Notes: a model not told the origin generated them from the letters alone. A stretch of 64,000 nt of DNA from an uncultured Candidatus Saccharibacteria bacterium (GCA_964611205.1 CAZSZB010000004.1:12121-76120), one strand, 5' to 3'; positions 6,406-56,173 are shown, counted from the stretch's first letter. Translations and numbers: made by a program.

Positions 6406-6406
6406 A

Positions 6407-8451: not shown

Positions 8452-8475
8452 GTCACGATTATGCTTTAGTGGTAA

Positions 8476-8512
8476 GAAAAGAAGGGTGGCCTTTGGCCGC
8501 CCTTCTTTTCTG
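8476..8512 (+). terminator. Rho-independent terminator ending the pilus gene block
   Basis: Stem GAAGGGTGGCC, loop ttt, stem GGCCGCCCTTC, followed by TTTTC. Confidence 0.6.
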
Positions 8513-8546
8513 CATGTTACAATTATTACATTAAGAATACTGAACT

Positions 8547-9335
8547 ATGAATAAAAAACGACACACACCACTGATAATCGGTAATTGGAAATTAAATCCA
8601 ACTACTGTAGGAGAAGCCAAGCAGTTGTTTTTAAGTATAAGAAGGCAGTTAGGGAGAAGAAAAAGTGATACTCATGTATCGATAGCCCCCCCGTTTCCAT
8701 TCCTGTCTGAACTTGAGAAATTGTCCCCTTCACAGAATATTAAATTGTCAGCCCAGGATGTTTTTTTTGAAAATGCGGGAGCCCACACTGGTTTAGTGTC
8801 TTTACCTATGCTCCAAAGCGTGGGTGTCAGTTCAGTGATTGTTGGACATTCAGAATTAAGGACCAAAGGAGAGTCCGATGAAGACATTCATGAGAAGGTA
8901 AAGATTGTTTGCAAGGGTGGAAGTACCGCTATTCTTTGTGTCGGGGAAAAAGTCCGAGATCAACAGGGTGATTATTTTGGTGTTATTGAAAAACAAGTAC
9001 ACTCTGCTATCAAAGATTTACCAAAATCTAAATTAAATCAACTAGTTATTGCTTACGAACCTGTCTGGGCAATAGGAACTGGTAAGAATGCCACCCCAGA
9101 AGATGTACACGAAATGAAGTTATTTATCCAAAAAGTTTTAGTCAACATATTTGGCCGAACTGTAGTTAATAAAGTACGAATTATTTATGGTGGCTCAGTT
9201 AATGAAAGTAATGCGACTGCTTTATTAGAACAAGGCGAAGTAGATGGGTTTTTAATAGGTGGTGTTAGTTTAAAACCGACGGAATTCACTAATATAGTAC
9301 GTTTAGCAGAAAGTTATGAAAAAACTGCCGTTTAA
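8547..9335 (+). CDS. tpiA: Triosephosphate isomerase
   Basis: Motifs LIIGNWKLN and AYEPVWAIGTG are present. Confidence 0.9.
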   Translation: MNKKRHTPLIIGNWKLNPTTVGEAKQLFLSIRRQLGRRKSDTHVSIAPPFPFLSELEKLSPSQNIKLSAQDVFFENAGAHTGLVSLPMLQSVGVSSVIVGHSELRTKGESDEDIHEKVKIVCKGGSTAILCVGEKVRDQQGDYFGVIEKQVHSAIKDLPKSKLNQLVIAYEPVWAIGTGKNATPEDVHEMKLFIQKVLVNIFGRTVVNKVRIIYGGSVNESNATALLEQGEVDGFLIGGVSLKPTEFTNIVRLAESYEKTAV

Positions 9336-10458
9336 AAGTATTACAGAGTGTCAGCAACTAAAAGGAAAATACGTATTACTACGGGCTTCTACAAATGTAC
9401 CTATAAAAAATGGAGAGGTGAGTAACCAGTTTAGATTAGTTCGAGGTTTAGCAACCGTACGTTATTTAGTTTCAGAAGGGGCTAAAGTAATTATTGTTGG
9501 TCATGTCGGTAGTGACGGATCAATAAGTATTAAACCAGTTGCTGATATTTTTGCTCAACATATCAAGTCTTCATTTGTTCCGGCCATAACTGGAGCGGTA
9601 GTAAAAAATACTAGAGACAAAATGCAAGATGGTGATGTTATTTTTTTAGAAAATATTCGACGTGATCCTAGAGAAAAGGAGAATGATTCTGATTTCGCTC
9701 GCGAATTAGCTGACCTGGCAGACATTTATGTTAATGATGCTTTTGCTGCTTCACATCGAGTTCATACATCTTTGGTTGGTGTACCACTTTTGCTTCCCTC
9801 CTATGTGGGTTTGAATTTTGTTCACGAATACGAAGAGCTGACAAAGGCTAGACACCCCAAATCACCATCCCTATTTATGCTCGGTGGTGCCAAGTTTGGT
9901 ACCAAATTACCTTTAGTCGAAAAGTTCCTCGACATTTATGATTGCGTTTTTATTGGAGGAGCTTTAGCAAATGATTTTTTCAAAGCTAAGGGTTATGAAG
10001 TTGGTAGATCGATGGTATCAGAAGTAGATTTGTCTGATAGTCCATTACTTAATAATGATCGTGTTTTAGTACCAGTAGATGTGACTGTTCAAAATGGCGT
10101 CGGTGAAACCAGAGTGTGTGCACCAAATGAATTGAAAGTCGATGAAATTATTTATGATATGGGGCCAGCAACGGTTACTCTATTAAAACTAATGATTGAG
10201 AAGGCAGCCACGGTTTTGTGGAATGGTCCATTTGGTGATTATGAAAAAGGCTTTGATCAATACACAAAAGAAGTTGCTAGTTTGGTAGCGCTAGCAAAAT
10301 GCTACTCAGTGGTTGGGGGAGGAGATACAGTAGCTTCTATAGAAACCTTAGGCTTACAAGATAAATTTAATTTCATGTCGACGGCTGGCGGAGCCATGCT
10401 TACCTTTTTAGAAACAGGCACCTTACCTGCTATAGAAGCTTTGAAAAATAAAGATTGA
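9316..10458 (+). CDS. pgk: Phosphoglycerate kinase
   Basis: The 380-aa protein matches PGK over its length and overlaps the end of tpiA by 20 nt. Confidence 0.9.
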   Translation: MKKLPFKSITECQQLKGKYVLLRASTNVPIKNGEVSNQFRLVRGLATVRYLVSEGAKVIIVGHVGSDGSISIKPVADIFAQHIKSSFVPAITGAVVKNTRDKMQDGDVIFLENIRRDPREKENDSDFARELADLADIYVNDAFAASHRVHTSLVGVPLLLPSYVGLNFVHEYEELTKARHPKSPSLFMLGGAKFGTKLPLVEKFLDIYDCVFIGGALANDFFKAKGYEVGRSMVSEVDLSDSPLLNNDRVLVPVDVTVQNGVGETRVCAPNELKVDEIIYDMGPATVTLLKLMIEKAATVLWNGPFGDYEKGFDQYTKEVASLVALAKCYSVVGGGDTVASIETLGLQDKFNFMSTAGGAMLTFLETGTLPAIEALKNKD

Positions 10459-10480
10459 CGATAAAAACGGAGCTTTTTAA

Positions 10481-10888
10481 TTAGTCCTCCATAGCTGCTT
10501 GAATTTGGGTAGCTATGATAGCAAGATCGGCATCGCTTGCTTCTTTACCCTCGCTCATTACAAGGCCGAGGGCTTTATCTTTGTTGGGTAGTGGATAGAT
10601 TTTAATATGAACATGGGGTATGTCAAAACCTTCTACTACTAGACAGGTGCGAAACGGGTTGAGCGCTTTGTCGGTAGCCTGACCAACTTTCTTAGCAATA
10701 GAGAATAAATGTAAATAAGTCTCATTATCTAAATCAAAAGCATAGTCAATTTCCTTTTTTGGAATAACCAGGGACTGTCCTTTAACGGCTGGAAATTTAT
10801 CAAGAATAACAATACAAATTTCGTCTTCGTATAGGAAGTGAGCAGGGATTTCACGGTTTATGATTTTTGTAAAAATAGATTCTGACAT
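10481..10888 (-). CDS. HIT-family (histidine triad) protein
   Basis: The HVHIKIY histidine-triad motif is present in a 135-aa protein. Confidence 0.8.
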   Translation of the reverse strand: MSESIFTKIINREIPAHFLYEDEICIVILDKFPAVKGQSLVIPKKEIDYAFDLDNETYLHLFSIAKKVGQATDKALNPFRTCLVVEGFDIPHVHIKIYPLPNKDKALGLVMSEGKEASDADLAIIATQIQAAMED

Positions 10889-10945
10889 AACTGAATAGAT
10901 ATAAAAATAATGTCTGTTACGGAGGTAATGGTATCATAGACCAGT

Positions 10946-12643
10946 ATGACTAACTACCGTCTTCTAAAAACACTTAGCGATAAAGAAAAAATTGAACTGT
11001 CTGATTATTCCTCACTTCAACAACAGCTTTTAATAAACCGTGACATAAAAACTGCGACGGAGGCGGAAAGGTTCCTAAATCCTTCCTTTGCGGAGGAATT
11101 AAACGATCCTTGGCTCATGCCTGATATGAAAAAGGCAGTTAAAAGAATACTTAAAGCTATAAAAGACGACGAGAAAGTCACTATTTTTAGTGATTATGAC
11201 TGTGATGGTATACCGGGAGCAGTTATTCTTCATGATTTCTTTAAGGCAGTTGGGTTTCATAATTTTGTAAATTATATTCCCCATCGGCATTATGAAGGAT
11301 TTGGTTTTAGCCAAGAAGCTGCGGAGAAGATTTCTACTGATCAGTCAACTTTGGTTATAACTATTGATTGCGGTACTACCAGTGTGGAAGCAGTAGAGAA
11401 AGCTAATGAGTTAGGTCTTGATGTAATCATTACTGATCATCATGAAGCCGGGTCACAATTACCACCAGCAGTCGCAATTGTTAATCCTAAAATAGGAGAT
11501 TCATATCCTTTCCCTTATCTGTGTGGCGCCGGTGTAGTGTACAAACTTGTGCAAGCTTTACTTGAAGAGGGTGATTTCGAACTCAAAACCGGATGGGAGA
11601 AATGGTGGTTAGATATGGTCGGTCTGGCAACAGTGGCAGATATGGTTCCACTGACTGGTGAGAATCGAGTTTTGGCTAAATATGGTTTGGATGTTTTGCG
11701 TAAATCTAGACGACCCGGTCTACAGCAGTTGCTACGGAAGCAAAGGGTAGACCAAAGGACTTTGACCGAAGAAGATATTGGTTTCACTATTGGTCCTCGT
11801 ATAAACGCTGCTTCTCGTATGGATACGCCCGAAGATGCGTTTCATATGCTAGCTACTACAGATGAGGGTGAAGCTGGAGCTAGAGTGGATCATCTAGAAT
11901 CTTTAAATACTAAGCGTAAGACCACGGTTGCTTTGATGACTAAAGAAATACATAAGCGGATGAAAGAGTTGATAGAAGTGCCAGCAGTCATAGTGTTAGG
12001 AAACCCGAACTGGCGTCCGTCCTTGGTTGGTCTGTCGGCTGGTAAATTAGCCGATGAGTTTGGTAAACCAGCCTTTATCTGGGGGCGTGACGGTAATGGC
12101 ATAATAAAAGGCTCATGTCGTTCTGGTGGTCAAATTAGCGTCGTTAAGCTGATGGAGGAGGTGAGTGGTTCTTTAATCGAACATGGTGGCCATCATTTTT
12201 CTGGTGGTTTTAGTGTTTTAGAAAGTGAGATACATACTTTGCCAATGATATTGAACAAGGCTTACGAAAAATTGGGAGAGGAATCTTTAGTTTCAGAAGA
12301 GTTAGCCGTGGATACGGTAGTGAGATTAGAGGATATAGACAACCAGTTTATAAATGACCAAAAATCACTAGCTCCTTTTGGAGTGGATAATCCCAAACCA
12401 GTTTATTTGATTGAAAATATCACGGCCGTTAGCGTAGATCTTTTTGGTAAAACTAAAGAACATACCAAATTAGTTTTTAATACTACAGGCTTGGTCAGAG
12501 AAGCCATTGCCTTTTTTCGCTCATTTGATACTTTTACAAAAACTCCAGAAATAGGAAAGAGTGTTTCACTGCTGTGCCATTTAGAACAATCCTATTTTAT
12601 GGGTCGCTTACAAACCCGTCTTCGCATAATAGATATAATCTAA
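10946..12643 (+). CDS. recJ: Single-stranded-DNA-specific exonuclease RecJ
   Basis: The DHH motif (ITDHHEAG) and DHHA1 region are present in a 565-aa protein. Confidence 0.85.
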   Translation: MTNYRLLKTLSDKEKIELSDYSSLQQQLLINRDIKTATEAERFLNPSFAEELNDPWLMPDMKKAVKRILKAIKDDEKVTIFSDYDCDGIPGAVILHDFFKAVGFHNFVNYIPHRHYEGFGFSQEAAEKISTDQSTLVITIDCGTTSVEAVEKANELGLDVIITDHHEAGSQLPPAVAIVNPKIGDSYPFPYLCGAGVVYKLVQALLEEGDFELKTGWEKWWLDMVGLATVADMVPLTGENRVLAKYGLDVLRKSRRPGLQQLLRKQRVDQRTLTEEDIGFTIGPRINAASRMDTPEDAFHMLATTDEGEAGARVDHLESLNTKRKTTVALMTKEIHKRMKELIEVPAVIVLGNPNWRPSLVGLSAGKLADEFGKPAFIWGRDGNGIIKGSCRSGGQISVVKLMEEVSGSLIEHGGHHFSGGFSVLESEIHTLPMILNKAYEKLGEESLVSEELAVDTVVRLEDIDNQFINDQKSLAPFGVDNPKPVYLIENITAVSVDLFGKTKEHTKLVFNTTGLVREAIAFFRSFDTFTKTPEIGKSVSLLCHLEQSYFMGRLQTRLRIIDII

Positions 12644-12731
12644 ATCATAAAAGAGGTGGTTATGAATATGTTATCAATGACTATATAAGTGTTTGTTTGG
12701 AAGACAAAAATAGTGTTATAGTTAGCGGAAT

Positions 12732-13151
12732 ATGGAAAAAATAATTGTCTACACGGATGGTGGAGCGCGTGGTAATCCAGGGCCAGCAGCAATTGGGGTT
12801 CATATTGTTGATGATTCTGGTCAGGTTGTGAAAGAAGCAAAAGAAACAATTGGAAATAGTACAAATAATTTTGCCGAGTATTATGGTGTGTTGCGTGGCT
12901 TACAATTGCTAAAAGAGTTATACGGAAAAAAGACCAAAGACATGGAAATTGAATTGAGAATGGATTCGGAATTGGTAAAAAAACAACTAAATGGAGAGTA
13001 CCAAATAAAAGAACCTGGCCTGGTACCGATGTTTATGGAAATTCATAACCTGCGAGTAGCGAACTTTTCGAATCTTACCCTAACTCACATAAAAAGATCG
13101 TTAAATAAAGAAGCAGATCGCTTGGTCAATGAAGCGCTTGATGGTAAGTAG
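12732..13151 (+). CDS. rnhA: Ribonuclease HI
   Basis: The N-terminus YTDGGARGNPGPAAIGV and the acidic catalytic residues (AEY, DSELV, NKEAD) are present. Confidence 0.8.
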   Translation: MEKIIVYTDGGARGNPGPAAIGVHIVDDSGQVVKEAKETIGNSTNNFAEYYGVLRGLQLLKELYGKKTKDMEIELRMDSELVKKQLNGEYQIKEPGLVPMFMEIHNLRVANFSNLTLTHIKRSLNKEADRLVNEALDGK

Positions 13152-21053: not shown

Positions 21054-23228
21054 ATGGCACGAGCATTTCCACTGGATAGACTACGTAACTTCGGTATCGT
21101 TGCACACGTTGATGCCGGGAAAACAACAACATCAGAACGCATTCTTTTTTATACAGGAATGAGTCACAAAATGGGTGAGACCCACGACGGTACATCAATT
21201 ACTGACTGGATGGACCAAGAACGTGAGCGCGGTATTACTATTACTGCCGCTGCTATTTCTTGTAACTGGGCGAAAACTTTAGAGACTGATCGCACTAATA
21301 AAGACAAGATGTACAGTTTCAACATCATCGACACTCCTGGACACATCGACTTTACTGCCGAGGTAAAACGATCGATGCGCGTGCTCGACGGAGCAGTGGT
21401 TGTATTCGATGGGGCAGCAGGAGTAGAGCCACAGACTGAAACTAACTGGGGTTATGCCGACGAAGCTAGTGTGCCACGAATTTGTTTCGTCAATAAAATG
21501 GATAAATTAGGAGCTGATTTTGATGCTTCTGTAAAATCTATTGAAAATCGTCTTTCTAAAAAAGCTTGTCGTATTCAAATCCCAATGGGCTCAGAAAACA
21601 ATATGCGAGGTGTGATAGATCTGATCACTATGAAGGCCTATACTTTTGGCGGGGAAATGGGAATGGAAGTTAGCGAACAAGAAATTCCTGAAGAATTCAA
21701 AGCTGAGGCAGAAAAACGTCGCGCTGAACTTATCGAACGTGTAGTTGAACATGATGATGCTCTGATGGAAGCCTTTCTAGAAGGGAAGGAACCTTCTTTA
21801 GAGGATTTAAAGAAGACTCTTCGTAAAGCTGTTTTAGCTAACGAGATTTTCCCAGTGATGACTGGTACTGCTCTACAAAATGTTGGAGTGCAACTAATTC
21901 TTGATGCCGTGGTTGACTACCTCCCGTCGCCACTAGACCTGCCTGATACTGTAGGACATGATCCAAAAGACGAAGAAATTACATTAACTCGCAAGGCTTC
22001 TGACGAAGAACCAATGTCTGCTCTAGTTTTCAAACTCCAAGATGACAAGTTTGTTGGTCAATTAGCTTTCTTCCGAGTTTATTCTGGTGTTATTAAAAGT
22101 GGTACATATATCCTTAACGCTTCAACAGGTAACAAAGAGCGAGTAGGACGAATTGTCCGCTTGATGGCTGATAAACGGGAAGAGGTAGAAGAAGTGTATG
22201 CTGGAGAAATTGCTGCTGCCGTAGGTATTAAAGAAGTAAAAACATCACATACACTATGTGATGTCGATAAACCAATTCTACTAGAAACCATCACTTTCCC
22301 AGCTCCGGTGGTAGCAGTTCGGGTAGAACCAAAGACAAAGAACGACCAAGAAAAAATGGGTGTGGCTTTGAAGCGATTGGCTGATGAAGATCCGACATTT
22401 GTGGTCTCGACTGATGATGAAACATTAGAGACTATTATTGCTGGTATGGGTGAGTTACACCTAGACATTCTGATCGACCGTATGAAACGAGAATTTGGTG
22501 TTGAAGCAAATATTGGTCAACCACAGGTTGCTTACCGAGAAACTATTCAACGAGAAGCTGAAGCTGAACACAAATATATCAAACAATCTGGTGGTCGTGG
22601 ACAATATGGTCATGTTAAGATCCGTATTAAACCACTCGAACCCCTAGCTGAAGGGGAGACCGTAGCTAAGAATGTGACTCGCGAAGATCATTTCGAGTTT
22701 GTCAACAGTATTAAAGGCGGTACTATTCCACAAGAATATATTCCAGCAGTGATGAAGGGTTGTAGAGAGGCCATGGCTCGTGGTCAGGTAGCTGGTTATA
22801 AGATGGAAGATGTTTCCGTTGAATTGTTTGACGGTTCTTACCATGATGTGGACTCAAGCGAAATTGCCTTTAAATTGGCTGGTATTAACGCTTTCAAGGA
22901 AGCAGCTAAGAGAGCTAATGCGGTTATTCTTGAGCCGATAATGAAGGTTGAAGTGCGAACTCCAGAAGAATATATGGGAGATATTAACGGAAATATTTCT
23001 TCTAAGCGCGGACAAGTAGAGGCTTCAGAAGAATTGGGTGGAAAAACTATTGTTCACGCCAAGGTGCCTTTGTCTGAAATGTTTGGTTACACAAATACTT
23101 TGCGTTCTATGACACAGGGCCGAGCTTCAATGACAATGGAATTTGATCATTATGAAGTAGTGCCTCCAAACGTAGCCGAGGAGATTAAAAAAGCTCGAGG
23201 AGTTAAATCAGATGTTGAGACAGCTTAA
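21054..23228 (+). CDS. fusA: Elongation factor G
   Basis: The G-domain motif AHVDAGKTTTSE is present in a 724-aa protein. Confidence 0.95.
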   Translation: MARAFPLDRLRNFGIVAHVDAGKTTTSERILFYTGMSHKMGETHDGTSITDWMDQERERGITITAAAISCNWAKTLETDRTNKDKMYSFNIIDTPGHIDFTAEVKRSMRVLDGAVVVFDGAAGVEPQTETNWGYADEASVPRICFVNKMDKLGADFDASVKSIENRLSKKACRIQIPMGSENNMRGVIDLITMKAYTFGGEMGMEVSEQEIPEEFKAEAEKRRAELIERVVEHDDALMEAFLEGKEPSLEDLKKTLRKAVLANEIFPVMTGTALQNVGVQLILDAVVDYLPSPLDLPDTVGHDPKDEEITLTRKASDEEPMSALVFKLQDDKFVGQLAFFRVYSGVIKSGTYILNASTGNKERVGRIVRLMADKREEVEEVYAGEIAAAVGIKEVKTSHTLCDVDKPILLETITFPAPVVAVRVEPKTKNDQEKMGVALKRLADEDPTFVVSTDDETLETIIAGMGELHLDILIDRMKREFGVEANIGQPQVAYRETIQREAEAEHKYIKQSGGRGQYGHVKIRIKPLEPLAEGETVAKNVTREDHFEFVNSIKGGTIPQEYIPAVMKGCREAMARGQVAGYKMEDVSVELFDGSYHDVDSSEIAFKLAGINAFKEAAKRANAVILEPIMKVEVRTPEEYMGDINGNISSKRGQVEASEELGGKTIVHAKVPLSEMFGYTNTLRSMTQGRASMTMEFDHYEVVPPNVAEEIKKARGVKSDVETA

Positions 23229-23365: not shown

Positions 23366-24367
23366 ATGTCTTCATCAACTCGGGTGTTCCTGTTTACTGT
23401 CGTAGCTTTGTTTATCTCAGCCATTGCACTTTTGTCTGTTGCTATAGCGAGTGCAGATGTTGGTCCCTTTGATCAGCCTGTGGAAATGTCTGGCTATGCT
23501 TGGAGTAGTAATGTCGGCTGGATATCCCTAAACTGCTCTAATGATAGTTCTTGTGCTACATCAGACTACAAAGTAAGAATAAACACCGATTATACAGTCA
23601 CCGGCTATGCTTGGAGCAGTAACGTTGGTTGGATTAAATTTGGTGGTCTTTCTGGTATGCCGGCTAGTGGCGGACAAGCCCAGATAAACAATGACCGAGA
23701 TCAAATGACTGGTTGGATAAGAGCTTGCTCAGCTACCGACGCTGGTGATTGTACTGGAGGATTAGACCCTGATGGTGGTGGTTGGGATGGTTGGATTTCT
23801 TTAAATTGTTCTAATAACAGCGGTTGTGCCACTTCCAATTACGCTACTACTGTAGGAGTAGGTAGTTTTGGTAATTACGCCTGGGGCGGTGATGTTATTG
23901 GTTGGGTAAGCTTTGCTACAGCTGATTTCACTCAACCATGTACCCCCGCTCTGGCTTGTAATGCTGAAAATAATGGCTATGCTATTAACAATCAATGGTG
24001 TGAATCAGAGGCGCCAGTTAGCTGTGCGGGTAATGAATATTGTTATGACACTGTAGGTTGTAAGTTAGTAGATATTAACTATCAATTTTCTGTCAATCAA
24101 TTATTAGTTAAAAAAGAAGGGAAAGTTACTTTAGATTGGTCAGTTGATGGAGCTGATGTATCACAATGTAAGGTGACTGGTAACAACAATGATTCCTGGA
24201 TTGGTCTAACTGATGAGAGCGTATCTGGTGGAGTAGCAATTGTGTCTAGTCCTTTAACTAGACAGGTAACAGCCTTTACTCTTAGTTGTGTTCCAGCCGG
24301 TGGTGGTAGTTTCTATGATTTGAAAACTATTGAAGTTAACCTAGTACCAACGATAATCGAAAGCTAA
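23366..24367 (+). CDS. Secreted Trp-rich repeat protein
   Basis: It has a signal peptide and three repeats of the type GYAWSSNVGWI(S/K)(L/F)..C.. Confidence 0.55.
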   Translation: MSSSTRVFLFTVVALFISAIALLSVAIASADVGPFDQPVEMSGYAWSSNVGWISLNCSNDSSCATSDYKVRINTDYTVTGYAWSSNVGWIKFGGLSGMPASGGQAQINNDRDQMTGWIRACSATDAGDCTGGLDPDGGGWDGWISLNCSNNSGCATSNYATTVGVGSFGNYAWGGDVIGWVSFATADFTQPCTPALACNAENNGYAINNQWCESEAPVSCAGNEYCYDTVGCKLVDINYQFSVNQLLVKKEGKVTLDWSVDGADVSQCKVTGNNNDSWIGLTDESVSGGVAIVSSPLTRQVTAFTLSCVPAGGGSFYDLKTIEVNLVPTIIES

Positions 24368-24368
24368 C

Positions 24369-24677
24369 ATGCAAATAATTCGTAATTTTTTCACAAAGTA
24401 CCAAATATCTATCCTTATTTTATCTAATATATTGATATTGATTACTATTTGTTTGGTTTTATATGGTTGGTATTATCTCTATACTTCAAACCTGACGAGC
24501 CATAAGTTTTTTGGAATAGATGACGATTCAGAATCAAGTGAGATTGAAGAAAAGACATCTCAAAAAATAACTCTTGAAGATAAAAAAGCTTTATTGGAAA
24601 AACTAGAAGGCAATCCCGATAATGTGTCAATTGAAGATAAACGAAAATTATTATCGACTCTCCAGTCGTCTGAGTAA
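24369..24677 (+). CDS. Small membrane protein with an acidic, Ser-rich tail
   Basis: 102 aa with a single transmembrane helix. Confidence 0.4.
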   Translation: MQIIRNFFTKYQISILILSNILILITICLVLYGWYYLYTSNLTSHKFFGIDDDSESSEIEEKTSQKITLEDKKALLEKLEGNPDNVSIEDKRKLLSTLQSSE

Positions 24678-24699
24678 GTTCTATTTTAAATAAAATATA

Positions 24700-24900
24700 A
24701 CCATGAAAACCCTCACCACCAGCCTCATAAAAATCTCCATCATCCTCACCATCGTCACGGTCGCTTTCGCCGTCAACTACATCCAAGCTGCTTGGTCCGC
24801 TCCACAGAACAACCCACCAGATGGCAACACCCCAGCTCCCATTAACACCGGCAGCGAAGCCCAGGTGAAAGAAGGAGCTTTATCAGTTGATGGATTAGTA
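24700..24900 (+). repeat. Copy 1 of the ~195-bp 5' module (signal peptide plus conserved stalk start)
   Basis: About 90% DNA identity to copies at 25471, 26148, 28146 and 28900. Confidence 0.8.
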
Positions 24901-25398
24901 TCCCACTCTAACAACAACATCTTTGTGGGTGCCGGGGAACAAGAATTTTATGTCAAACCCGGGTTTAAGGGTGAGGTACAGACTAGTGGATATACTACGA
25001 TAGGTACTTCTTCAGGTACTGTGTATACACCTAATGACTTTGAGGTAGGAGGTCAAGTACGAGCTAGTCAGTATTGTGATGAGAATGGGGCTAATTGTTT
25101 AAGTGGTGGGGGGTCATCAGGCGAAAATGGAGTGTTGGGAGGCGGTTGGCCAGTTTTTTTTGTGTGTGAAACACGGAGCGATTTTAAAAGTTTATTCATT
25201 TTATTAAAAATGAACCCATCGACCGTAGTATACGGGACTTTCAATGTGTCCCAAGCAGACAGAACTTCTACTTGGCATTCGTACGTTTATTTTAACAAAT
25301 TAGACAGAAACCCTACAGGATCTGGAGATTATGCCCCGCCGTCATGTGCAAAAAACATGGATACCTTGATCAGTGAAGGAAAGGCCATTTTCAATTAA
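24703..25398 (+). CDS. Paralog A of the island family: shared N-terminal module with a unique C-terminal domain
   Basis: N-terminus MKTL..IKISIIL.IVTVAFAVNYIQAAWSAPQNNPPDGNTPAPIN.G.EAQVKEGALSVDGL. Confidence 0.7.
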   Translation: MKTLTTSLIKISIILTIVTVAFAVNYIQAAWSAPQNNPPDGNTPAPINTGSEAQVKEGALSVDGLVSHSNNNIFVGAGEQEFYVKPGFKGEVQTSGYTTIGTSSGTVYTPNDFEVGGQVRASQYCDENGANCLSGGGSSGENGVLGGGWPVFFVCETRSDFKSLFILLKMNPSTVVYGTFNVSQADRTSTWHSYVYFNKLDRNPTGSGDYAPPSCAKNMDTLISEGKAIFN

Positions 25399-25461
25399 TA
25401 TTTTATTTTTAGCTAAACAGAAATCTTAAGCAAAAATCACAATATAACAGTTCATTTTAAT

Positions 25462-26142
25462 TTGATAACAACCATGAAAACCCTCCCCCACACCATCATA
25501 AAAATCTCCATCATCCTCACCATTGTCACGGTTGCTTTCGCCGTCAACTATCTCTACGCTGCTTGGTCCGCCCCACAGAACAACCCACCAGATGGCAACA
25601 CCCCAGCTCCCATCAACGCTGGTACTGAAGCCCAAGTGAAAGAAGGAGCTTTGTCGGTGGATGGGTTAACTTCGTATGCCAATAACAACATTTTTGTTGG
25701 TGCAGGAGGTCAACAATTCTCTATCAAGCCAGGGTTTAAGGGCAATACACAAACTAGTGACTATACAACAATTGGTGACGCCTCTAGTACAGTCTATATT
25801 TTAGGCAGTTTAGAAGTAGAAAATAGCAACGGTACAGGCAGTGATTATTTGTGGCGCTATGAGAATTTTGATGAAGATATTTACCCTTCTTTTTTTCCAG
25901 GTATTTGTGCTTATGGGTTGAATTGGAAATGTCCCGGCTGGGACAAAGTAATGTGGAAACAACCTCCAGCTAGTAGAGATACTTGTAATCAAAATATTAA
26001 CGGACCATACACATGCGCTGTAAATGAGAGTAAGACATGTAACGATGTAATTAAGGCGTGTGATCATTCGGGCGAACCTTGTGGTTATTCTGAAAGTATA
26101 GTGACTTGTAAAAAGTTAAAAACTCCCTACGTGATAGAATAA
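25462..26142 (+). CDS. Paralog B of the island family, with a Cys-rich C-terminal domain
   Basis: It carries the same N-terminal module; the probable start is MKTLPH at 25474. Confidence 0.7.
   Translation: MITTMKTLPHTIIKISIILTIVTVAFAVNYLYAAWSAPQNNPPDGNTPAPINAGTEAQVKEGALSVDGLTSYANNNIFVGAGGQQFSIKPGFKGNTQTSDYTTIGDASSTVYILGSLEVENSNGTGSDYLWRYENFDEDIYPSFFPGICAYGLNWKCPGWDKVMWKQPPASRDTCNQNINGPYTCAVNESKTCNDVIKACDHSGEPCGYSESIVTCKKLKTPYVIE
25471..25670 (+). repeat. Copy 2 of the 5' module
   Basis: Near-identical DNA. Confidence 0.8.
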
Positions 26143-26147
26143 TAAAT

Positions 26148-26345
26148 ATAATGATAAAAACCCTCCCCCACACCATCATAAAAATTTCCATCATTCTCGG
26201 CATCGTCACGGTAGCTTTCGCCGTCAACTACATCCAAGCTGCTTGGTCCGCCCCACAGAACAACCCACCAGATGGCAACACCCCAGCTCCCATCAACGCT
26301 GGTACTGAAGCTCAAGTGAAAGAGGGAGCTTTGTCGGTGGATGGG
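26148..26345 (+). repeat. Copy 3 of the 5' module
   Basis: Near-identical DNA. Confidence 0.8.
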
Positions 26346-26747
26346 TTGGCTGTTTTCGGAAATATGATTATTTCTGGAAGTACAATTATTGGCAGCACTA
26401 CCTTGCCGTCAAGCGACATTACCTTGGGTGTGGATGGTTCAATAGGAGCCACGTCGTATTTATATACTTCAGATAAGAACTTAAAAACAAACATTAAAAC
26501 AGTAGCTGGTCTTGATACAGTTAAACAGCTGCGCGGAGTATCCTTTAACTGGAAAAAAAATGGTAAGAAATCTGTAGGTCTTATTGCTCAGGAAGTAGAA
26601 GAAGTGTTTCCAGAATTGGTCACCACTACAGACAGTGGACTCAAATATGTTGAGTACGGAAATTTAATTGCGCCACTTATTGAAGCTATTAAGGAACAAC
26701 AAATTCAAATTAATCAGTTACAGGCAGAACTGGATACTTTGAAATAG
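26151..26747 (+). CDS. Paralog C of the island family, with a C-terminal intramolecular-chaperone domain of the phage tail-fibre/endosialidase (peptidase S74) type
   Basis: The C-terminus SDKNLKTNIKT..LRGVSFNWKK..GLIAQEVEEVFPELV..KYVEYGNLIAPLIEAIKEQQ matches the S74 auto-chaperone consensus. Confidence 0.7.
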   Translation: MIKTLPHTIIKISIILGIVTVAFAVNYIQAAWSAPQNNPPDGNTPAPINAGTEAQVKEGALSVDGLAVFGNMIISGSTIIGSTTLPSSDITLGVDGSIGATSYLYTSDKNLKTNIKTVAGLDTVKQLRGVSFNWKKNGKKSVGLIAQEVEEVFPELVTTTDSGLKYVEYGNLIAPLIEAIKEQQIQINQLQAELDTLK

Positions 26748-26750
26748 AAT

Positions 26751-28109
26751 ATGGTGAATAAAATTTTTATAAAAAAATTTATAGTTCCTATCGCTATCTT
26801 TGTTTTAATTTTACCCATTGGCGTATGGGCTTTGGGAATAGTAGAAGAGGGTTTCTTAGTCAATAATTCAGAAGTAGCAATAGATGCCCACGGTACGTGT
26901 AAAAAAGTAAAAGCTAATGATGGCCGAGAATACTTTGTTCCGACCAAAGGTATAGATGAATGGAGTTCCTTCTTAGAAAATACACCAGTTGGGATGACTC
27001 TTTCAGAATGTATTGATTTTTCTGATCAAGTTGAGTTCATTACTAGTTTTAGCTGTCCCAATCCCTATCATTATATGAGATGTGGTTTGGTGGGTGTTAC
27101 TGATTCTATTACTAGTGATGGTGGATATATATATGCTTTTGAAGATGGGTATAACGGATCATATTCTTCACAAAAATTGCACATATACAAATATAATAAA
27201 GATACAAAATCTGTTTCACTTGTGGAGACAATAAAAAATCTTGGTAATTATCCTAAATGGATAGAGAGTTTTGCTATAAACTCCGATGGTAGTCGAATTT
27301 TACTTACTAGAAGACAAGATGTCGCCGGAGGAACATCTTCATTTTATATTTATGCATTTGATGGTGTGAATGCTAATTTACTTTACACAGGTTCTTATAA
27401 GGGAGGATTTAGCCACAACGTTTCTGCTATAAATGAGGATGGTACCGTGGTGGCTTTTCAAGGAAGAATTTATGAAAAAAACGGATCTACCTATGATGAG
27501 GTGTTTGATAATGGATTTCATGGAGCATTAGCATCCAATGACCCACAACAAAGTCACATAGGTGCAAATCTATATCTTGGTGATGATAGTTTTTATCTCT
27601 TTAAAAGAGAGGGGAGGGGAGACATTGTACAAAAACAGTCTGATGGGTCATGGCAAGTTATACAGTCAATTTTACCAAGTGTAAATAACAAATGGCAGGC
27701 TAGTTTTGCTGCTGTTTCTAACGATTATTCACTTATGGCTATTAACTCAAAAAAGGATTCTTCTTCTAATTATAAATCTGATATTTATAAAAAGAATGAG
27801 TCTGGCCCTGGCTACACCAAGTTGGGCACTATCGACTTGGGAGACCTGCAAAGACATACGGTTGAATTTTCAGCTGCCGGAAGATATTTTATTTCAGCTG
27901 GAAAGACCTGGAACATAGACCCTATGTTAGAAGGTGGTTCGCCGATTGTAGTTAAATCAACGGCAAACTGGATGGATTCTTATAGTACTTCTCAGTTTGG
28001 TTATGCTCATGAGAATAGTCTAGGAGATATTGTGGTAGCAAGGCCAGATATAAATGGTGGAGCTAAATTTTCTGGAAAATTTTATATATACAAGCGACTT
28101 CCCAATTAG
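26751..28109 (+). CDS. Secreted protein with beta-propeller-like repeats
   Basis: It has a signal peptide and repeated SDGS/EDGT..V beta-strand motifs. Confidence 0.5.
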   Translation: MVNKIFIKKFIVPIAIFVLILPIGVWALGIVEEGFLVNNSEVAIDAHGTCKKVKANDGREYFVPTKGIDEWSSFLENTPVGMTLSECIDFSDQVEFITSFSCPNPYHYMRCGLVGVTDSITSDGGYIYAFEDGYNGSYSSQKLHIYKYNKDTKSVSLVETIKNLGNYPKWIESFAINSDGSRILLTRRQDVAGGTSSFYIYAFDGVNANLLYTGSYKGGFSHNVSAINEDGTVVAFQGRIYEKNGSTYDEVFDNGFHGALASNDPQQSHIGANLYLGDDSFYLFKREGRGDIVQKQSDGSWQVIQSILPSVNNKWQASFAAVSNDYSLMAINSKKDSSSNYKSDIYKKNESGPGYTKLGTIDLGDLQRHTVEFSAAGRYFISAGKTWNIDPMLEGGSPIVVKSTANWMDSYSTSQFGYAHENSLGDIVVARPDINGGAKFSGKFYIYKRLPN

Positions 28110-29675: not shown

Positions 29676-29858
29676 TGCGGACACTGCATACGGCCTTCGG
29701 TCGTGGTAGGGCAATCATAATCGCTCTTTCACACTTTTGAGTGTGCTTTGGTAACGTACTGTTCTCGTGCCGTTTCCATAACACATTCAGCCGAGGTTTT
29801 TATATTTAAAACCCAGCCGTGTGCGGTTGCATTTATAAAAATTAATCTAACTAATTTT

Positions 29859-31049
29859 ATGTCAGATTTTGATCGTTCAAAGCCGCACGTAAACGTTGGA
29901 ACTATTGGTCACGTTGACCATGGTAAAACAACTCTTACGGCTGCGATTCTAACTACCCTAAAAGCTCACGAGAGCGAGGGTTACAGTGCTAACGTTAAAG
30001 ACGTTGGTGATATTGATAAAGCCCCAGAAGAAAAGGCTCGTGGTATTACTATTTCTCTTTCTCACTCTGAGTACGAGACTCCTAATCGTCACTACGCGCA
30101 CATTGATGCTCCTGGTCACGCCGACTACATTAAGAACATGATTACTGGTGCCGCCCAGATGGATGGTGCTGTACTTGTAGTAGCTGCTACTGATGGTGCT
30201 ATGCCACAAACTCGTGAGCACGTACTATTGGCCAAGCAAGTTGGTGTACCTAGTATCATTGTTTTCCTAAACAAATGTGATCTAGTTGATGATGAAGAGA
30301 TGCTCATGCTAGTAGAAGAAGAGCTTCGTGAACTTCTAACTGCTAACAAATTTGACGGAGAAAATGCTCCGATCATACATGGTTCTGCTCTAAAGGCTTT
30401 AGAGGGAGATGCCGAATACCAAGCTAAAATTATTGAATTGGCTAATGCGATGGATTCATTCTTCCCAGAACCAGTTCGTGAGCTTGATAAACCTTTCCTA
30501 ATGCCAGTAGAAGACATCTTCTCTATTGAAGGACGCGGTACAGTAGTAACTGGTCGTGTAGAGCGAGGTAAGGTTAAGGTAGGAGAAGAAATCGAAATTG
30601 TTGGAATCAAGAATACTGTTGTCACAACTGTGACTGGTGTTGAGATGTTTAATAAACAACTTGATGCAGCTCAAGCTGGAGACAATGCTGGTATTTTGCT
30701 ACGAGGTACTAAAAAAGAAGATGTACACCGTGGTCAGGTTCTAGCTGCTAAAGGTTCTGTTACTCCACATACTGAATTTGAAGCCGAAGTGTACATACTT
30801 TCAAAAGATGAAGGTGGTCGTCACACTCCTTTCTTCTCAGGTTATAAGCCTCAGTTCTATATTCGTACAACTGACGTAACAGGAGACGTTACGCTAGCTG
30901 AAGGAACAGAAATGGTTATGCCAGGAGACACTGCAACTTTCAAAGTAAAGCTAGTATCTCCAGTAGCTCTAGAGGAACAACAAAGTTTTGCTATTCGTGA
31001 AGGAGGTAAGACAGTGGGAGCTGGTGTTGTAACCAAAATAGTCGCTTAA
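29859..31049 (+). CDS. tuf: Elongation factor Tu
   Basis: The protein starts [25 protein letters not shown]. The ORF-track start at 29748 is an in-frame upstream extension. Confidence 0.95.
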
Positions 31050-48964: not shown

Positions 48965-49336
48965 ATGAAGAAGTTCTTTTCGGCGGCAGCTGTCTGTCTG
49001 CTTACCCTTACGGGAGCTGCCTATGCTGATCATCTTCATGAAGGTGACAGCTTCGTAGGGGGCTGGCAATTCTACAACAGCAACCCCGGCAACATCAAGA
49101 TCGGAGACGGCAACGGCTGGGCTCTGGACTTGCGGGGTACTGATCGGTACTGCGTCTCGCCTGGTGCCGGCTACAGCACCATGACCAGCTACATCAGCAG
49201 CAACTACCCCAGCCACGTCTCGTGGTTCGTGGATGAGATCTGCACTGATGGGTATGTGCGGATCTGCGTCTACTCCGGGAGCGGCAACCTGGCCTGTTCC
49301 ACTTACTGGGACAATGGCTGGGTGAGACTCGATTAG
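48965..49336 (+). CDS. Secreted Cys-containing small protein with atypical composition (about 58% GC against a ~40% background)
   Basis: It has a signal peptide (MKKFFSAAAVCLLTLTGAAYA), a GGAGG ribosome-binding site, and strongly GC-rich codon usage. Confidence 0.6.
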   Translation: MKKFFSAAAVCLLTLTGAAYADHLHEGDSFVGGWQFYNSNPGNIKIGDGNGWALDLRGTDRYCVSPGAGYSTMTSYISSNYPSHVSWFVDEICTDGYVRICVYSGSGNLACSTYWDNGWVRLD

Positions 49337-50187: not shown

Positions 50188-50197
50188 GCAGGTATTC

Positions 50198-50234
50198 TAC
50201 CAAAAAAACAAAAAGCTTACTCAGTCTGAGTAAA
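50198..50234 (-). terminator. Intrinsic terminator on the minus strand (upstream of the hydrolase gene)
   Basis: On the minus strand: stem TTACTCAG/CTGAGTAA followed by GCTTTTTGTTTTTTT. Confidence 0.5.
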
Positions 50235-50267
50235 CTTCCATATTCTTCCACATATTTCTATGTTCTA

Positions 50268-50419
50268 GTGGAGATAGGGGAACCCGCTTTTTCTAATTCG
50301 TTACACTCATAAGAACGCTGGTCGCAGCTCGCTTGTTTTCTTTTTAGGGGGAAAAGAAAACATAGCTCCGCTGGTTCAACTCCCCACGAAAGCAAAGCAG
50401 TTTGCTTTCTCCATCTCCA
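50268..50419. repeat. Cluster of partial copies of the tmRNA 3' terminus (att-like scars), closed by an 8-bp GTGGAGAT/ATCTCCAC pairing
   Basis: At 50268-50287 gtggagatAggggaacccgc is a degenerate direct copy. At 50373-50419 ggttcaactcccc..ccatctccac is an inverted copy with an inserted hairpin. Confidence 0.55.
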
Positions 50420-50474
50420 CGAATAAAAATCGCCCAACCAAAATGGTTGGGTGATTTTTATACTCGTGGAGATG
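50410..50474. repeat. Copy 2 of the palindromic element, extended by ccatctcc/ggagatgg
   Basis: ccatctccacgaataaaaatcgcccaaccaaaatggttgggtgatttttatactcgtggagatgg. Confidence 0.7.
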
Positions 50475-50483
50475 GGGGGAGTT
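50465..50483 (-). repeat. 19-bp direct repeat of the tmRNA 3' end (att-like)
   Basis: gtggagatggggggagttg is identical to 50664-50682. Confidence 0.7.
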
Positions 50484-50664
50484 GGTCACGTATTACTAAG
50501 TATATTATTTCGCTTTGCTCATAATTTACTAAGTGTTCTCGACCCGGCCTCGCCGACAAGCACTCCCTTCGGTCGTCTTGTGTACCGGCTCCGGCTTTCA
50601 ACTCCCCTCATACTCTCACAAACGCAAAGACTCCAAAAGCTTACACTTTTGGAGTCTGCGTATT

Positions 50665-51060
50665 GTGGAGATGGGGGGAGTTGAACCCCCGTCCGAATTG
50701 ATGTGTTAAGGTGCGTCTACAGTGTATAGTCAACTCTTTGGTTTAAAGTAGGTAGCTAAAGATATGACGAGACATTACCTACTCGAGTCCGCAGAATTTC
50801 ACTTCTCTTTGCAGACAAAAAGGGAAGTATATTCTCATGATATTACACCAACATTCTCTTATGAGAACTCAGAAAAGTTGATGTCGTCATCGGCGAGCGA
50901 GTAAAACTACGCTGTCGCGAATGCGAAGTCCTTTGCAGTGAAGAAAGGACTTTTTACGCTATTCTTTGCACGTAAAAGTGACCAAATTTTAACGCAGGTC
51001 TTGGTCAACTGCGACACTGCACACAATAACAGAGCATCAACCGTCGATGCCTGGCATCCC
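50665..51060 (-). ncRNA. ssrA: tmRNA (SsrA), standard one-piece form
   Basis: The 5' GGGGAUGCCAGGCAUCGACGG matches the conserved GGGGnnG..GGAUUCGACGGG. The 3' GGACGGGGGUUCAACUCCCCCCAUCUCCA(A) is a tRNA-like T-arm plus acceptor. The acceptor GGGGAUG/CAUCUCC has a G3-U wobble (the Ala identity element), and CCA is not encoded. A putative tag reading frame GCA AAG GAC UUC GCA UUC GCG ACA GCG UAG follows a CGUAAAAAG..-like leader. Confidence 0.8.
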
Positions 51061-51269
51061 CCAGCCGTGCTTTTTGTAAATATATAGCTAGTTTTAAAAA
51101 TAGCTAAGTCATCTGTTAAGTGCATAAAAAATGTGATTCGAATTACAAAAAGTACGGCTGGGGAAGTATGTGCTGATTTGGATACAGAGAGATGGTGCGC
51201 AACCTGACGAGGATTGTCTGGTTGCGCAAAGGTGTGCGAAGAGCGTCTAGCTAGGACCGCTCCTGATGG

Positions 51270-51681: not shown

Positions 51682-52128
51682 CTAACTTCGCTTGAGAAGG
51701 CGATCTATCATTCGTTTATTATCGCGCTCTTTAATAGTCTCTCGTTTATCTGCCTTCTTTTTACCACGAACAAGAGCTATTTCAAGTTTGATTTTACTCT
51801 TTTTATTATACCACGAAATAGGGACTATTGTCAATCCAGCAGTGTTTAGTTCTTTTCTAAGTTTATTAAGTTCTTTTTGTGATAAAAGTAATTGACGTTC
51901 TCGTTCTGGATTGTAATTGTCAGGAGCATTAGCTTCTTGATATGGTGGAATAGTAGCTCCTTTTAGATAAGCTCCATCATCTTTCAATATTATGTATGAA
52001 CCAACTAAACTAGCCTTACCCTTGCGGATTGATTTTACTTCAGTGCCACTAAGAACGGCTCCCGCTTCAAACGTTTCTAGGATTTCGTAATTAAAGGTGG
52101 CTTTTTTGTTACGGGTGTAAGTTGTCAT
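51682..52128 (-). CDS. smpB: SsrA-binding protein SmpB
   Basis: Motifs ..NKKATFNYEILETFEAG.. and ..GTEVKSIR.. with a KR-rich C-terminal tail. Confidence 0.9.
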   Translation of the reverse strand: MTTYTRNKKATFNYEILETFEAGAVLSGTEVKSIRKGKASLVGSYIILKDDGAYLKGATIPPYQEANAPDNYNPERERQLLLSQKELNKLRKELNTAGLTIVPISWYNKKSKIKLEIALVRGKKKADKRETIKERDNKRMIDRLLKRS

Positions 52129-52253: not shown

Positions 52254-54326
52254 ATGTCTGAACAAGAAAAAAACCAAAATTCTTTTAAAAGAGAGAAAAA
52301 GAATGATAATAAAGGGGTAGAAAATGGTAAAAATAATAAAAAGGGAATGAAGATTCCTAAATTTAAAGAAGTTCGAGTAGCCGGAAGGAAAATGCCTGTT
52401 GGACCGGGTAATTTCTGGAACAACCTACTCTCAACCATTTTGCTGTTGATTTTTATGACAGCCACGTATTCGTATTTGGTTAACAACAATACTAAACCTG
52501 ACGAGATATCAATTTCGCAAATTGTTAGAGAAGTACAAAATGGGGAAGTTAAAGAAATTATTGTTCGTGGTAGTGAGCTTGAAGTTAATTATGTCGACGA
52601 ATCACGCAATAGTGGAAAAGCTAAGAAAGAGACTGATGCAGCTATTTCTGAAACGTTAACTAATTTAGGTGTATCAATTGAACAATTATCGGCGGTCAAA
52701 CTTGATGTCCGTAACCCAACTGGTTTTAATTACTGGCTGTCTAATCTAGCACCATTCTTGTTCCCGTTACTTTTCTTAGGATTAGTGATTTGGTTTTTCA
52801 CTCGTTCTGTTAAAGGAGCTGGTATGCAAGCAATGAGTTTTGGAAGTAGTAAGGCCCGGATGATTGATCCTAACGATCTAAATCAAAAAGTCACATTTAA
52901 AGATGTGGCCGGCGCTAAAGAAGCTAAACAAGAACTTGAAGAAATTGTAGACTTCTTAAAAAATCCAAAAAAGTTTCTTGATATCGGTGCCGAAATCCCA
53001 AAGGGCGTCATGATGATGGGAGCTCCAGGAACTGGTAAGACTTTATTGGCGCGAGCGGTAGCTGGAGAGGCAGGGGTACCATTCTTTTCAATTTCAGGTT
53101 CTGAATTCGTAGAGATGTTTGTTGGTGTTGGAGCGAGTCGAGTACGTGATCTTTTCCAGATGGCAAAAAAGAGTGCCCCGTCAATCATCTTTGTAGATGA
53201 GATTGATGCAGTAGGAAGAGTGCGCGGAACTGGTATAGGTGGTGGTAACGATGAGCGAGAGCAAACACTCAATCAGATCTTAGTGGAGATGGATGGTTTT
53301 GAACCAAACGCAAAAGTGATTGTGATCGCCGCCACTAACCGGCCAGATGTATTGGACCCAGCACTGTTACGCCCTGGTCGTTTTGATAGACGAGTAACTA
53401 TCGATCTTCCAGACCGTGAAGACCGAAAGGCTATACTTGAAGTACATGCACGCAAGAAGCCCTTGCAAGAAGATGTGAATCTAGAAATAATTGCTCAACG
53501 TACTCCTGGTTTTTCTGGGGCAGATCTTTATTCACTTATGAATGAAGCAGCCATCTTGGCCGCTCGAGAAAGTCGTAAAAAAGTTGGCCAGTTCGATTTA
53601 ATTCGTTCAATTGAAAAAGTCATGCTTGGTCCAGAACGAAAAAGTCATGTCTTATCTAAGAAAGAAAGATTGGTAACGGCTTACCATGAAGTAGGGCATG
53701 CCTTGGTTGCTTCAGTACTACCATACGCTGATCCGGTGCAGAAGATTTCTATTATTTCTCGCGGTCGAGCAGCTGGGTACACTCTGAAATTACCTGATGA
53801 AGATCGTAAGATGCAAACTCGAAAAGAGTTTATGGATGACATCGCCATGACTTTAGGAGGTTATGTGACAGAAGAAATAGTGTTCGGAGATTTAACTACT
53901 GGACCAAGTAATGATCTTCAGGTGGTAGCAAACCTAGCTCGTGATATGGTTACCAAATATGGCATGAGTGACATTGGGCCGATTGCTTTAGAAGGAACGG
54001 GAGGTCGCATGATTGGTGGCGGTATGAGCGAAGATCGCGGTTACTCACCACAAGTCGCTAAACAAATTGATGATGAGGTAGCTAAGATTATCGAAGAAGG
54101 AAAAGAAAAAGCTCGTGACATTATCAACTCTCACCGCAAGGCTCTAGATGCGATTTCAGCTAAGTTAGTAGAGCTAGAAACCTTAGAAAGAGAAGAGTAT
54201 GAAGCGTTACTTAAGCAAGAAGGAGTAGTGATAAAAGATGCTTATAGAGAAGAGCGAGAGCTGGAAGAAAAGTTGGGAGATCCTACAAAAGCTTTAGAAA
54301 GTAAAGTAAACAAAGAAAATCTCTAA
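52254..54326 (+). CDS. ftsH: ATP-dependent zinc metalloprotease FtsH
   Basis: AAA motif [30 protein letters not shown] zinc site, and an N-terminal membrane anchor. Confidence 0.95.
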
Positions 54327-55925: not shown

Positions 55926-55998
55926 GTCCGCCGGCTTGGACTCGAACCAAGGACCACGGAGGTATAAGCTCCGCGCTCTACCAACTGAGCTACCGGCG
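55926..55998 (-). tRNA. tRNA with anticodon UAU (reads AUA; tRNA-Ile(UAU) type)
   Basis: Read on the minus strand: CCGCCGG-UA-GCUC-AGUUGGUA-GAGC-G-CGGAG-CUUAUAC-CUCCG-UGGUC-CUUGG-UUCGAGU-CCAAG-CCGGCGG-A. All stems are perfect, U33 and A37 are present, and CCA is not encoded. Confidence 0.75.
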
Positions 55999-56173
55999 GA
56001 CAAAATATTTTTTAAATTTATACAATTCTTGATTTTGTCTCATCTAAAAGCTCAAATAGAGCTATTCGAATCGAACAATAAGCATTGATTCCCAACTGTG
56101 CTACTGGAGCATCAGTTGGTGCACAAAACTATACCTTGTGGCAAAATTTTTTGCAAAAATTTTGCCACCTACA

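Follow-up and report, generated by a model that had tools for sequence, protein, structure and literature searches.

In Escherichia coli, the recognition by ClpX of the peptide tag encoded by ssrA, the gene of transfer-messenger RNA (tmRNA), rests on the terminal residues ..LAA, the penultimate alanine being a key determinant. Mycoplasmas are without active ClpXP and carry a longer tag ending in NYAFA that is recognised by Lon (PMC9382460), and in E. coli ssrA-tagged proteins are a substrate of FtsH as well (Herman et al. 1998, as cited in PMC9382460). For the bacteria of the Candidate Phyla Radiation (CPR), ClpX is inferred in one preprint to have been lost on the stem of the group. Our search of the literature found no paper describing CPR tmRNA tags, nothing specific on CPR together with ClpP, Lon or FtsH, and nothing on Lon protease in Parcubacteria. 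Here we describe the ssrA locus carried by a DNA stretch of 64,000 nucleotides (nt), called the window hereafter, from a genome deposited as an uncultured Candidatus Saccharibacteria bacterium (GCA_964611205.1, CAZSZB010000004.1:12121-76120). We consider it very probable that this locus is a functional one-piece ssrA of CPR type, whose predicted tag, AKNSVKSPFFTAKDFAFATA, bears an A-x-A ending found throughout the lineage and would most likely mark proteins for degradation by a protease other than ClpX.

The gene itself is a routine member of its family, and standard annotation tools find both the gene and the correct tag. The sole tmRNA reported by ARAGORN in the window is a one-piece gene of 397 nt on the minus strand (50665..51061), and the Rfam model RF00023 matches 50663..51061 with 116.9 bits (gathering score 47, E 5.2e-45), with all of its positions, 1-374 of 374, aligned and no truncation. 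The original prediction, which had been made from the sequence alone, had placed a tmRNA on this strand at 50665-51060; the strand and the 3' side hold, and the 5' end was one base short, G1 lying at 51061. The 5' and 3' sequences quoted in its support, GGGGAUGCCAGGCAUCGACGG and GGACGGGGGUUCAACUCCCCCCAUCUCCA, are both located in the window. A permuted or two-piece tmRNA was also considered and rejected, the one-piece model aligning from end to end and the permuted model giving a weak partial match. The elements on which the following argument relies are listed here.

51055..51061, minus strand: 5' strand of the acceptor stem, GGGGAUG, pairing with CAUCUCC at 50673..50667
50980..51013, minus strand: pseudoknot 1 (PK1), from the Rfam alignment
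50970..50979, minus strand: single-stranded linker ACUUUUACGU, 10 nt between PK1 and the resume codon, with U(-5) and A(-4)
50907..50969, minus strand: open reading frame (ORF) of the tag, with resume codon GCA at 50969..50967, 20 codons and stop codon UAG at 50909..50907
50934..50936, minus strand: second GCA, the resume codon of the original prediction, which is codon 12 of the tag, in the same frame and 33 nt further 3'
50926..50952, minus strand: hairpin inside the tag ORF, AAGUCCUUU / AAAGGACUU, 50952..50944 pairing with 50934..50926, from RNAfold
50888..50923, minus strand: helix 5, CAUUCGCGA / UCGCCGAUG, whose loop contains the stop codon
50690..50674, minus strand: T-arm GGGGG-UUCAACU-CCCCC, which together with the acceptor 3' strand spans 50667..50690
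50628..50657, minus strand: intrinsic terminator, a 13-bp stem followed by the U-rich tail UUUGCGUUU

The secondary structure was examined by aligning the window tmRNA with eight relatives and counting pairs in the acceptor stem, the T-arm, both PK1 stems and helix 5. Over these nine sequences 91.8% of the cells are paired and 19 pairs have changed on both sides; in 500 shuffles not one of the five pairing measures was equalled, and with the partners displaced by 1-3 columns the pairing falls to 38-49%. All seven pairs of the acceptor stem are invariant, and the wobble at the third pair, G3 (51059)·U (50669), is kept in 9/9 sequences, in agreement with the acceptor GGGGAUG/CAUCUCC and its G·U pair as first described. 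The T-stem is fully paired with two-sided changes at each of its five pairs. Both PK1 stems are backed by compensatory changes, stem 1 (CGCAG/CUGCG, tmRNA nt 49-53 with 65-69) being 100% paired and stem 2 (GACCAA/UUGGUC, nt 56-61 with 77-82) 96% paired with compensatory changes at 6/6 pairs. Helix 5 is paired to 72% with six pairs changed on both sides, and the regions of pseudoknots 2-4 align to the covariance model too, though the posterior probabilities there are lower and several pairs are non-canonical. Taken together, the pairing, the two-sided changes and the shuffle test argue that the locus is a conserved, structured and functional RNA rather than a pseudogene. Furthermore, the window tmRNA sequence is identical in at least six independent metagenome contigs, and the whole set of smpB, intervening ORF and tmRNA recurs exactly on contigs of several independent metagenomes. 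At its 3' end the gene reads ..CAUCUCC-A-C followed by AA, that is, the discriminator A and then a genomic CAA, so that CCA, which had been predicted not to be encoded, is indeed incompletely encoded and must be completed post-transcriptionally; the same incomplete encoding is seen in 25 of 27 related tmRNAs. A consensus scan returned no strong sigma-70 promoter immediately upstream of the tmRNA.

Both ARAGORN and the Rfam alignment yield the tag AKNSVKSPFFTAKDFAFATA, with 20 encoded residues and the C-terminal stretch ..SPFFTAKDFAFATA. In the latter, the consensus UGCaAACgA is aligned with high posterior probability to UGCAAAGAA, which puts the resume codon on the GCA at 50969..50967. The 10 nt that separate PK1 from this codon are close to the spacing in E. 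coli, and the linker ends in ..UUUUACGU directly before GCA. Its T88 and A89 are invariant in the nine aligned sequences, and among 27 CPR tmRNAs U(-5) is present in 25/27, A(-4) in 27/27 and U(-1) in 27/27. These U(-5)A(-4) positions of the CPR linker correspond to the nucleotides around U85-A86 of E. coli, which are conserved and set the frame with SmpB (PMC4236655). The codons of the tag point to the same start. In a set of 23 distinct sequences from the tag clade, six of them taken from the surroundings of smpB genes and seventeen obtained by scanning metagenomes with the last seven tag codons alone, codon 1 is always alanine (GCA in 18, GCU in 5), and codons 2-11 are kept as K-N-[SN]-V-[KTI]-S-P-[YF]-F-[TS] with synonymous changes at third positions (AAA/AAG, UUC/UUU, ACU/ACG/ACA). 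More distant relatives have tags of 13-26 residues, of which 21/27 contain an internal S-P-[Y/F] lying in the part that the shorter, originally predicted tag had omitted. Spacing, linker, codon conservation, ARAGORN and Rfam agree, and the GCA at 50969..50967 is the resume codon that we favour.

The original prediction had translation resume instead at the second GCA-AAG (50936..50934) and append the nine-residue tag AKDFAFATA. This reading has some foundation, for a GCA-AAG pair stands at both sites in the same frame, and a motif resembling the E. coli PK1 motif CGUAAAAAGCC does lie upstream of the second one; it is this resemblance of GCGUAAAAAGUCC to CGUAAAAAGCC that caused the second site to be mistaken for the resume codon. 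However, GCGUAAAAAGUCC is a look-alike within the tag ORF, and the alignment of the two motifs does not hold, as Rfam puts the true counterpart of CGUAAAAAGCC further 5', at GCGUUAAAAU inside PK1 (51013..50980). The second GCA is preceded by U(-5) C(-4) rather than UA and stands at a distance of 43 nt from PK1 instead of 10; codon 12 is among the two most variable positions of the tag (Ala 16, Val 5, Ser 2), valine or serine replacing alanine in 7/23 distinct relatives; the eleven codons upstream of it evolve in the manner of a coding sequence, with conservation throughout the class; and both programs pick the upstream GCA. A resumption at the second site is therefore very improbable. What survives of the nine-residue tag is its C-terminal ..DFAFATA followed by UAG, since the two GCA codons share one frame and the ATA terminus stands despite the wrong resume codon and the wrong length. 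The outcome named in advance as speaking against the original tag, namely another resume codon together with a canonical ..LAA ending, was found by half: the resume codon is another one, and the tag ends in ATA, not in LAA.

The ATA terminus, now confirmed in the ARAGORN/Rfam frame, had been called unusual, which holds with respect to model organisms and fails within the lineage. The window tag ends in A-T-A rather than in the ..[LV]-A-A-COOH canonical for ClpXP. We took a census of 27 tags from SmpB-linked tmRNAs of the Paceibacteria type, in which the terminal residue is alanine in 27/27 and the antepenultimate residue is alanine in 23/27; the penultimate residue is T in 6, F in 5, L in 5, V in 4, I in 2, Y in 2, R in 2 and A in one. 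LAA and VAA endings are absent from this set, and 26 of its tags have a penultimate residue other than alanine. A-x-A-COOH, with x standing for T, F, L, V, I, Y or R, is the rule among the predicted tags of this lineage, most of which also possess the internal S-P-[Y/F] motif. A further 25 tmRNAs with ..DFAFATA came out of the metagenome scan, their sources including groundwater, lake and soil. In the window tag a FAFA core precedes the final T-A, and one relative (L026) ends exactly in ..AFAFA. It is worth noting that the serine of S-P-[Y/F] is written with AGY codons in 9 tags and with UCN codons in 12; passing from one codon family to the other needs more than one nucleotide change, which argues for selection on the tag peptide itself. 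Likewise, codons 14-20 vary almost only synonymously among close relatives that were found via SmpB and not via the tag.

The Ser-Pro codons also form the 5' arm of the hairpin inside the tag ORF (tmRNA nt 110-118 with 128-136). Three close relatives show a compensatory U-A to A-U change in it, and arms of other lineages read UCACCU/AGGUGA, UCACCG/CGGUGA, UCUCCG/CGGGGG and UCUCCA/UGGAGU. Perfect pairing (6/6) occurs in 9/21 sequences against 3.8% of shuffles; as six of the nine perfectly paired sequences come from one clade, the evidence for this hairpin is moderate. We also considered whether it might be the true helix 5 and did not adopt this view, since there is support as well for a distinct helix 5 round the stop codon. 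We rather take the hairpin to be an extra element beside helix 5.

Which protease would read such a tag? Three considerations point to a likely degron for an AAA+ protease other than ClpX, namely the replacement of the penultimate alanine, the loss of ClpX reported in the preprint and the precedent of Mycoplasma Lon, and the change of protease specificity that the original prediction had drawn from the ATA terminus is plausible on these grounds and is strengthened by the A-x-A pattern of the lineage. FtsH and Lon are the candidates. Lon owes its place to the Mycoplasma tag, and FtsH to the action of the E. coli enzyme on ssrA-tagged proteins (Herman et al. 1998, as cited in PMC9382460) and to the position of its gene, a conserved divergent neighbour of smpB. 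The genes that surround ssrA on this side are as follows.

52254..54326, plus strand: ftsH, AAA+ metalloprotease with Pfam AAA and Peptidase_M41 domains, divergent from smpB
51682..52128, minus strand: smpB (PF01668), protein partner of tmRNA, 148 amino acids
51270..51593, minus strand: acidic ORF of 106/107 amino acids between smpB and ssrA, 49% GC and 57% GC at third codon positions (GC3)

In 24 CPR loci ftsH stands upstream of smpB on the opposite strand, within 300 nt in 13 of them and within 1 kb in 20, and among the non-CPR loci that this query retrieved none had the divergent arrangement. Of the 42 window ORFs that reach 170 amino acids or more, 28 were compared with Pfam in a search for proteases; among the other 14, seven have Pfam assignments from the gene calls of the source contigs. 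In the ORFs so covered, FtsH was the one AAA+ protease to appear.

One may object that the tag is still a ClpXP degron and that the ClpX of this lineage, or a ClpC/ClpA-type unfoldase working with ClpP, simply accepts A-x-A. Terminal alanine with its free carboxylate and antepenultimate alanine are indeed kept in most tags, as such a degron would have it; nonetheless, the penultimate alanine is replaced in 26/27 tags, even by arginine, tyrosine or threonine, the window ORFs that were examined include no clp gene, and the preprint places a loss of ClpX on the stem of the CPR, so that we judge this explanation unlikely. Another view would deny the tag any role as a degron, the tmRNA being kept only for ribosome release and A-x-A reflecting relaxed drift after the loss of ClpX. 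Ribosome release, not proteolysis, is the essential function of tmRNA in several bacteria, and the penultimate position does vary widely, from T, F and L to V, I, Y and R. Drift of this kind is difficult to reconcile with a peptide that is clearly constrained, through the alanines fixed or nearly fixed on either side of the variable position, through the maintenance of S-P-[Y/F] across switches of serine codon family and through the near-exclusively synonymous change of codons 14-20 in the relatives found by SmpB; we regard it as quite unlikely. A degron read by a protease other than ClpX remains the explanation that we prefer, and several points weigh against it. The statement on ClpX loss comes from one preprint, in which it was reconstructed at the level of the phylum; the adjacency of ftsH and smpB may be an inherited gene order without functional meaning; the conservation of the Ser-Pro codons could partly reflect the RNA hairpin rather than the peptide; the ARAGORN tag calls are less secure for the most divergent relatives (L015, L025 and L027); and the finding that ClpX, ClpP, Lon and HslUV were not seen among the examined ORFs concerns the 64-kb window and not the whole genome.

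It is tempting to go one step further and to hypothesize that Paceibacteria-type CPR possess a new two-part tmRNA degron, composed of an internal S-P-[Y/F], the codons of which also form the hairpin, and of a terminal A-x-A, which arose after the loss of ClpX, is read by FtsH and belongs to an ftsH-smpB-ssrA module. We advance this idea tentatively and hold it to be on the doubtful side. If true, the two-part degron would be a second independent case of co-evolution between tag and protease, after the switch to Lon in Mycoplasma.

The sequence of events that we envisage follows the established pathway of trans-translation up to termination, each of these steps being supported here by features of the sequence. 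The primary transcript would end at the terminator (50657..50628) and then undergo trimming and completion of CCA; alanyl-tRNA synthetase would charge the tmRNA by means of the G3·U pair, and Ala-tmRNA would enter the stalled ribosome together with SmpB and EF-Tu. There SmpB would read the U(-5)A(-4) linker 10 nt past PK1 and set the frame on the GCA at 50969..50967, the ribosome would append AKNSVKSPFFTAKDFAFATA after the alanine borne by the tRNA-like part and terminate at UAG, and the tagged protein would presumably be passed to an AAA+ protease other than ClpX, with FtsH and Lon as the candidates.

The gene smpB ends 620 nt upstream of the 5' end of the tmRNA on the same strand, matching the distance of about 600 bp given at the outset. 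The window SmpB is 80% identical to that of a metagenome-assembled genome (MAG) of Minisyncoccia, and its closest relatives, identical to it at 66-80% of positions, belong to MAGs that bear the names Minisyncoccia, Parcubacteria, Paceibacteria, Kaiserbacteria and others. By these similarities the host is assigned to the Patescibacteria/CPR, of the Paceibacteria/Minisyncoccia type. The ORF lodged between smpB and ssrA had been described as a GC-rich foreign-looking gene, a fair description given its composition (49% GC and 57% GC3 versus 36% GC and 25% GC3 in smpB and 31% GC3 in ftsH) and its isolation. It encodes 25 aspartates and glutamates against 9 lysines and arginines, and no relative was obtained in Pfam, in PHROGs, by tblastn of 80 related loci or by blastp against ORFs in the same slot, no large-database search having been made. 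In the six closest relatives (L001 and L003-L007) the gap measures 480-810 nt and contains a same-strand ORF of 88-113 amino acids, mostly acidic; the same-slot ORFs of close relatives have no detectable similarity to one another. In distant relatives smpB and ssrA are just 50-100 nt apart. The slot between the two genes appears hypervariable. A few kilobases from smpB lies a tRNA-Ile(UAU) (55926..55999, minus strand), the anticodon of which is rare in bacteria, and it is present at the equivalent position in many related loci.

On its other side, the tmRNA is separated from a GDSL-lipase gene by a gap of 480 nt (50188..50664), in which a repeat search brought to light two further copies of the tmRNA 3' terminus.

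50466..50484, minus strand: direct copy of the tmRNA 3' terminus, 19/19 identical
50268..50286, minus strand: direct copy of the tmRNA 3' terminus, 74% identical

The 3'-end copies are spaced by 198-199 nt, each is followed by a hairpin, and two of them are also trailed by a GGGGAGUUGAA (GGGGAGTTGAA) motif. These 19-nt copies surfaced in the repeat search only; a scan with a 26-nt pattern allowing up to 3 mismatches gave no second tmRNA 3' end, and an Rfam scan of the 480-nt gap, run at the E-value threshold, returned only chance-level microRNA matches far below their gathering scores. The copies are probably scars of repeated integrations at ssrA. A contig of a sister strain (Logan SRR29792794_8155, L088) is identical to the window up to the tmRNA 3' end, where, at the position of window 50664/50663, it carries an insertion of 7.0 kb (5943..12948) with TCCACA at both junctions. 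This element encodes a large serine integrase of 554 amino acids (Resolvase and Zn_ribbon_recom domains; phrog_95, E 1e-62), a protein of 1191 amino acids whose DNA-binding domain is of LexA type, and three small ORFs. The window represents the empty site of the L088 element.

Elsewhere in the window, an ORF of 123 amino acids at 48965..49336 on the plus strand has a signal-peptide-like N-terminus, 57% GC and 73% GC3 in a genome of 40% GC, and gave neither a Pfam nor a PHROG match nor a homologue in related loci. Between fusA (21054..23228) and tuf (29748..31049), about 6.5 kb of ORFs (23366..28109, plus strand) form an unusual insertion, four of them without a Pfam match and one with a Peptidase_S74 (endosialidase chaperone) domain.

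As far as our search of the literature goes, the tag class with A-x-A and S-P-[Y/F] and the ftsH-smpB-ssrA cluster are modestly new comparative observations, their value lying in a large, uncultured, genome-reduced radiation that consistently places an A-x-A rather than a ..LAA tag beside ftsH. If FtsH or Lon reads the tag, it would represent a second natural tmRNA degron retargeted after ClpX loss and, if so, possibly another orthogonal pair of degron and protease, as the Mesoplasma tag is in synthetic biology. The RNA is in most respects that of E. coli SsrA and of the one-piece RF00023 standard. It shares with them a tRNA-like domain with G3·U and T-arm, an SmpB partner encoded upstream, a GCA resume codon that follows PK1 at ten nt, U(-5)A(-4), helix 5 round the stop codon and a 3' end that serves as an integration hotspot; three further putative pseudoknot regions are aligned by the model. 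It departs from E. coli SsrA (ANDENYALAA) by a tag of 20 codons instead of 10, by an A-T-A instead of an L-A-A end, by the extra hairpin in the ORF and by a CCA that is not fully encoded.

FtsH accepts non-polar C-terminal tails. The E. coli FtsH route (Herman et al. 1998, as cited in PMC9382460) offers a parallel insofar as it involves a membrane AAA+ protease and the end of the window tag is non-polar; in E. coli, however, FtsH is a minor route and ftsH is unlinked to smpB-ssrA, whereas here it flanks smpB divergently in most of the relatives examined. The Mollicutes, exemplified by mf-ssrA of Mesoplasma florum with its NYAFA end and its Lon, resemble the present lineage in having a reduced genome, a ClpX route reported as lacking, a long tag and an aromatic, alanine-rich C-terminus in which the penultimate residue is not alanine (..DFAFATA in the window; ..AFAFA, ..FAFALA and ..PAFA in relatives). 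They differ from it by belonging to an unrelated phylum, so that any resemblance between the tags of Mollicutes and CPR would be convergent, and the window tag is set apart by the T-A that follows its FAFA core, by the conserved internal S-P-[Y/F] and by ftsH as the syntenic protease gene.

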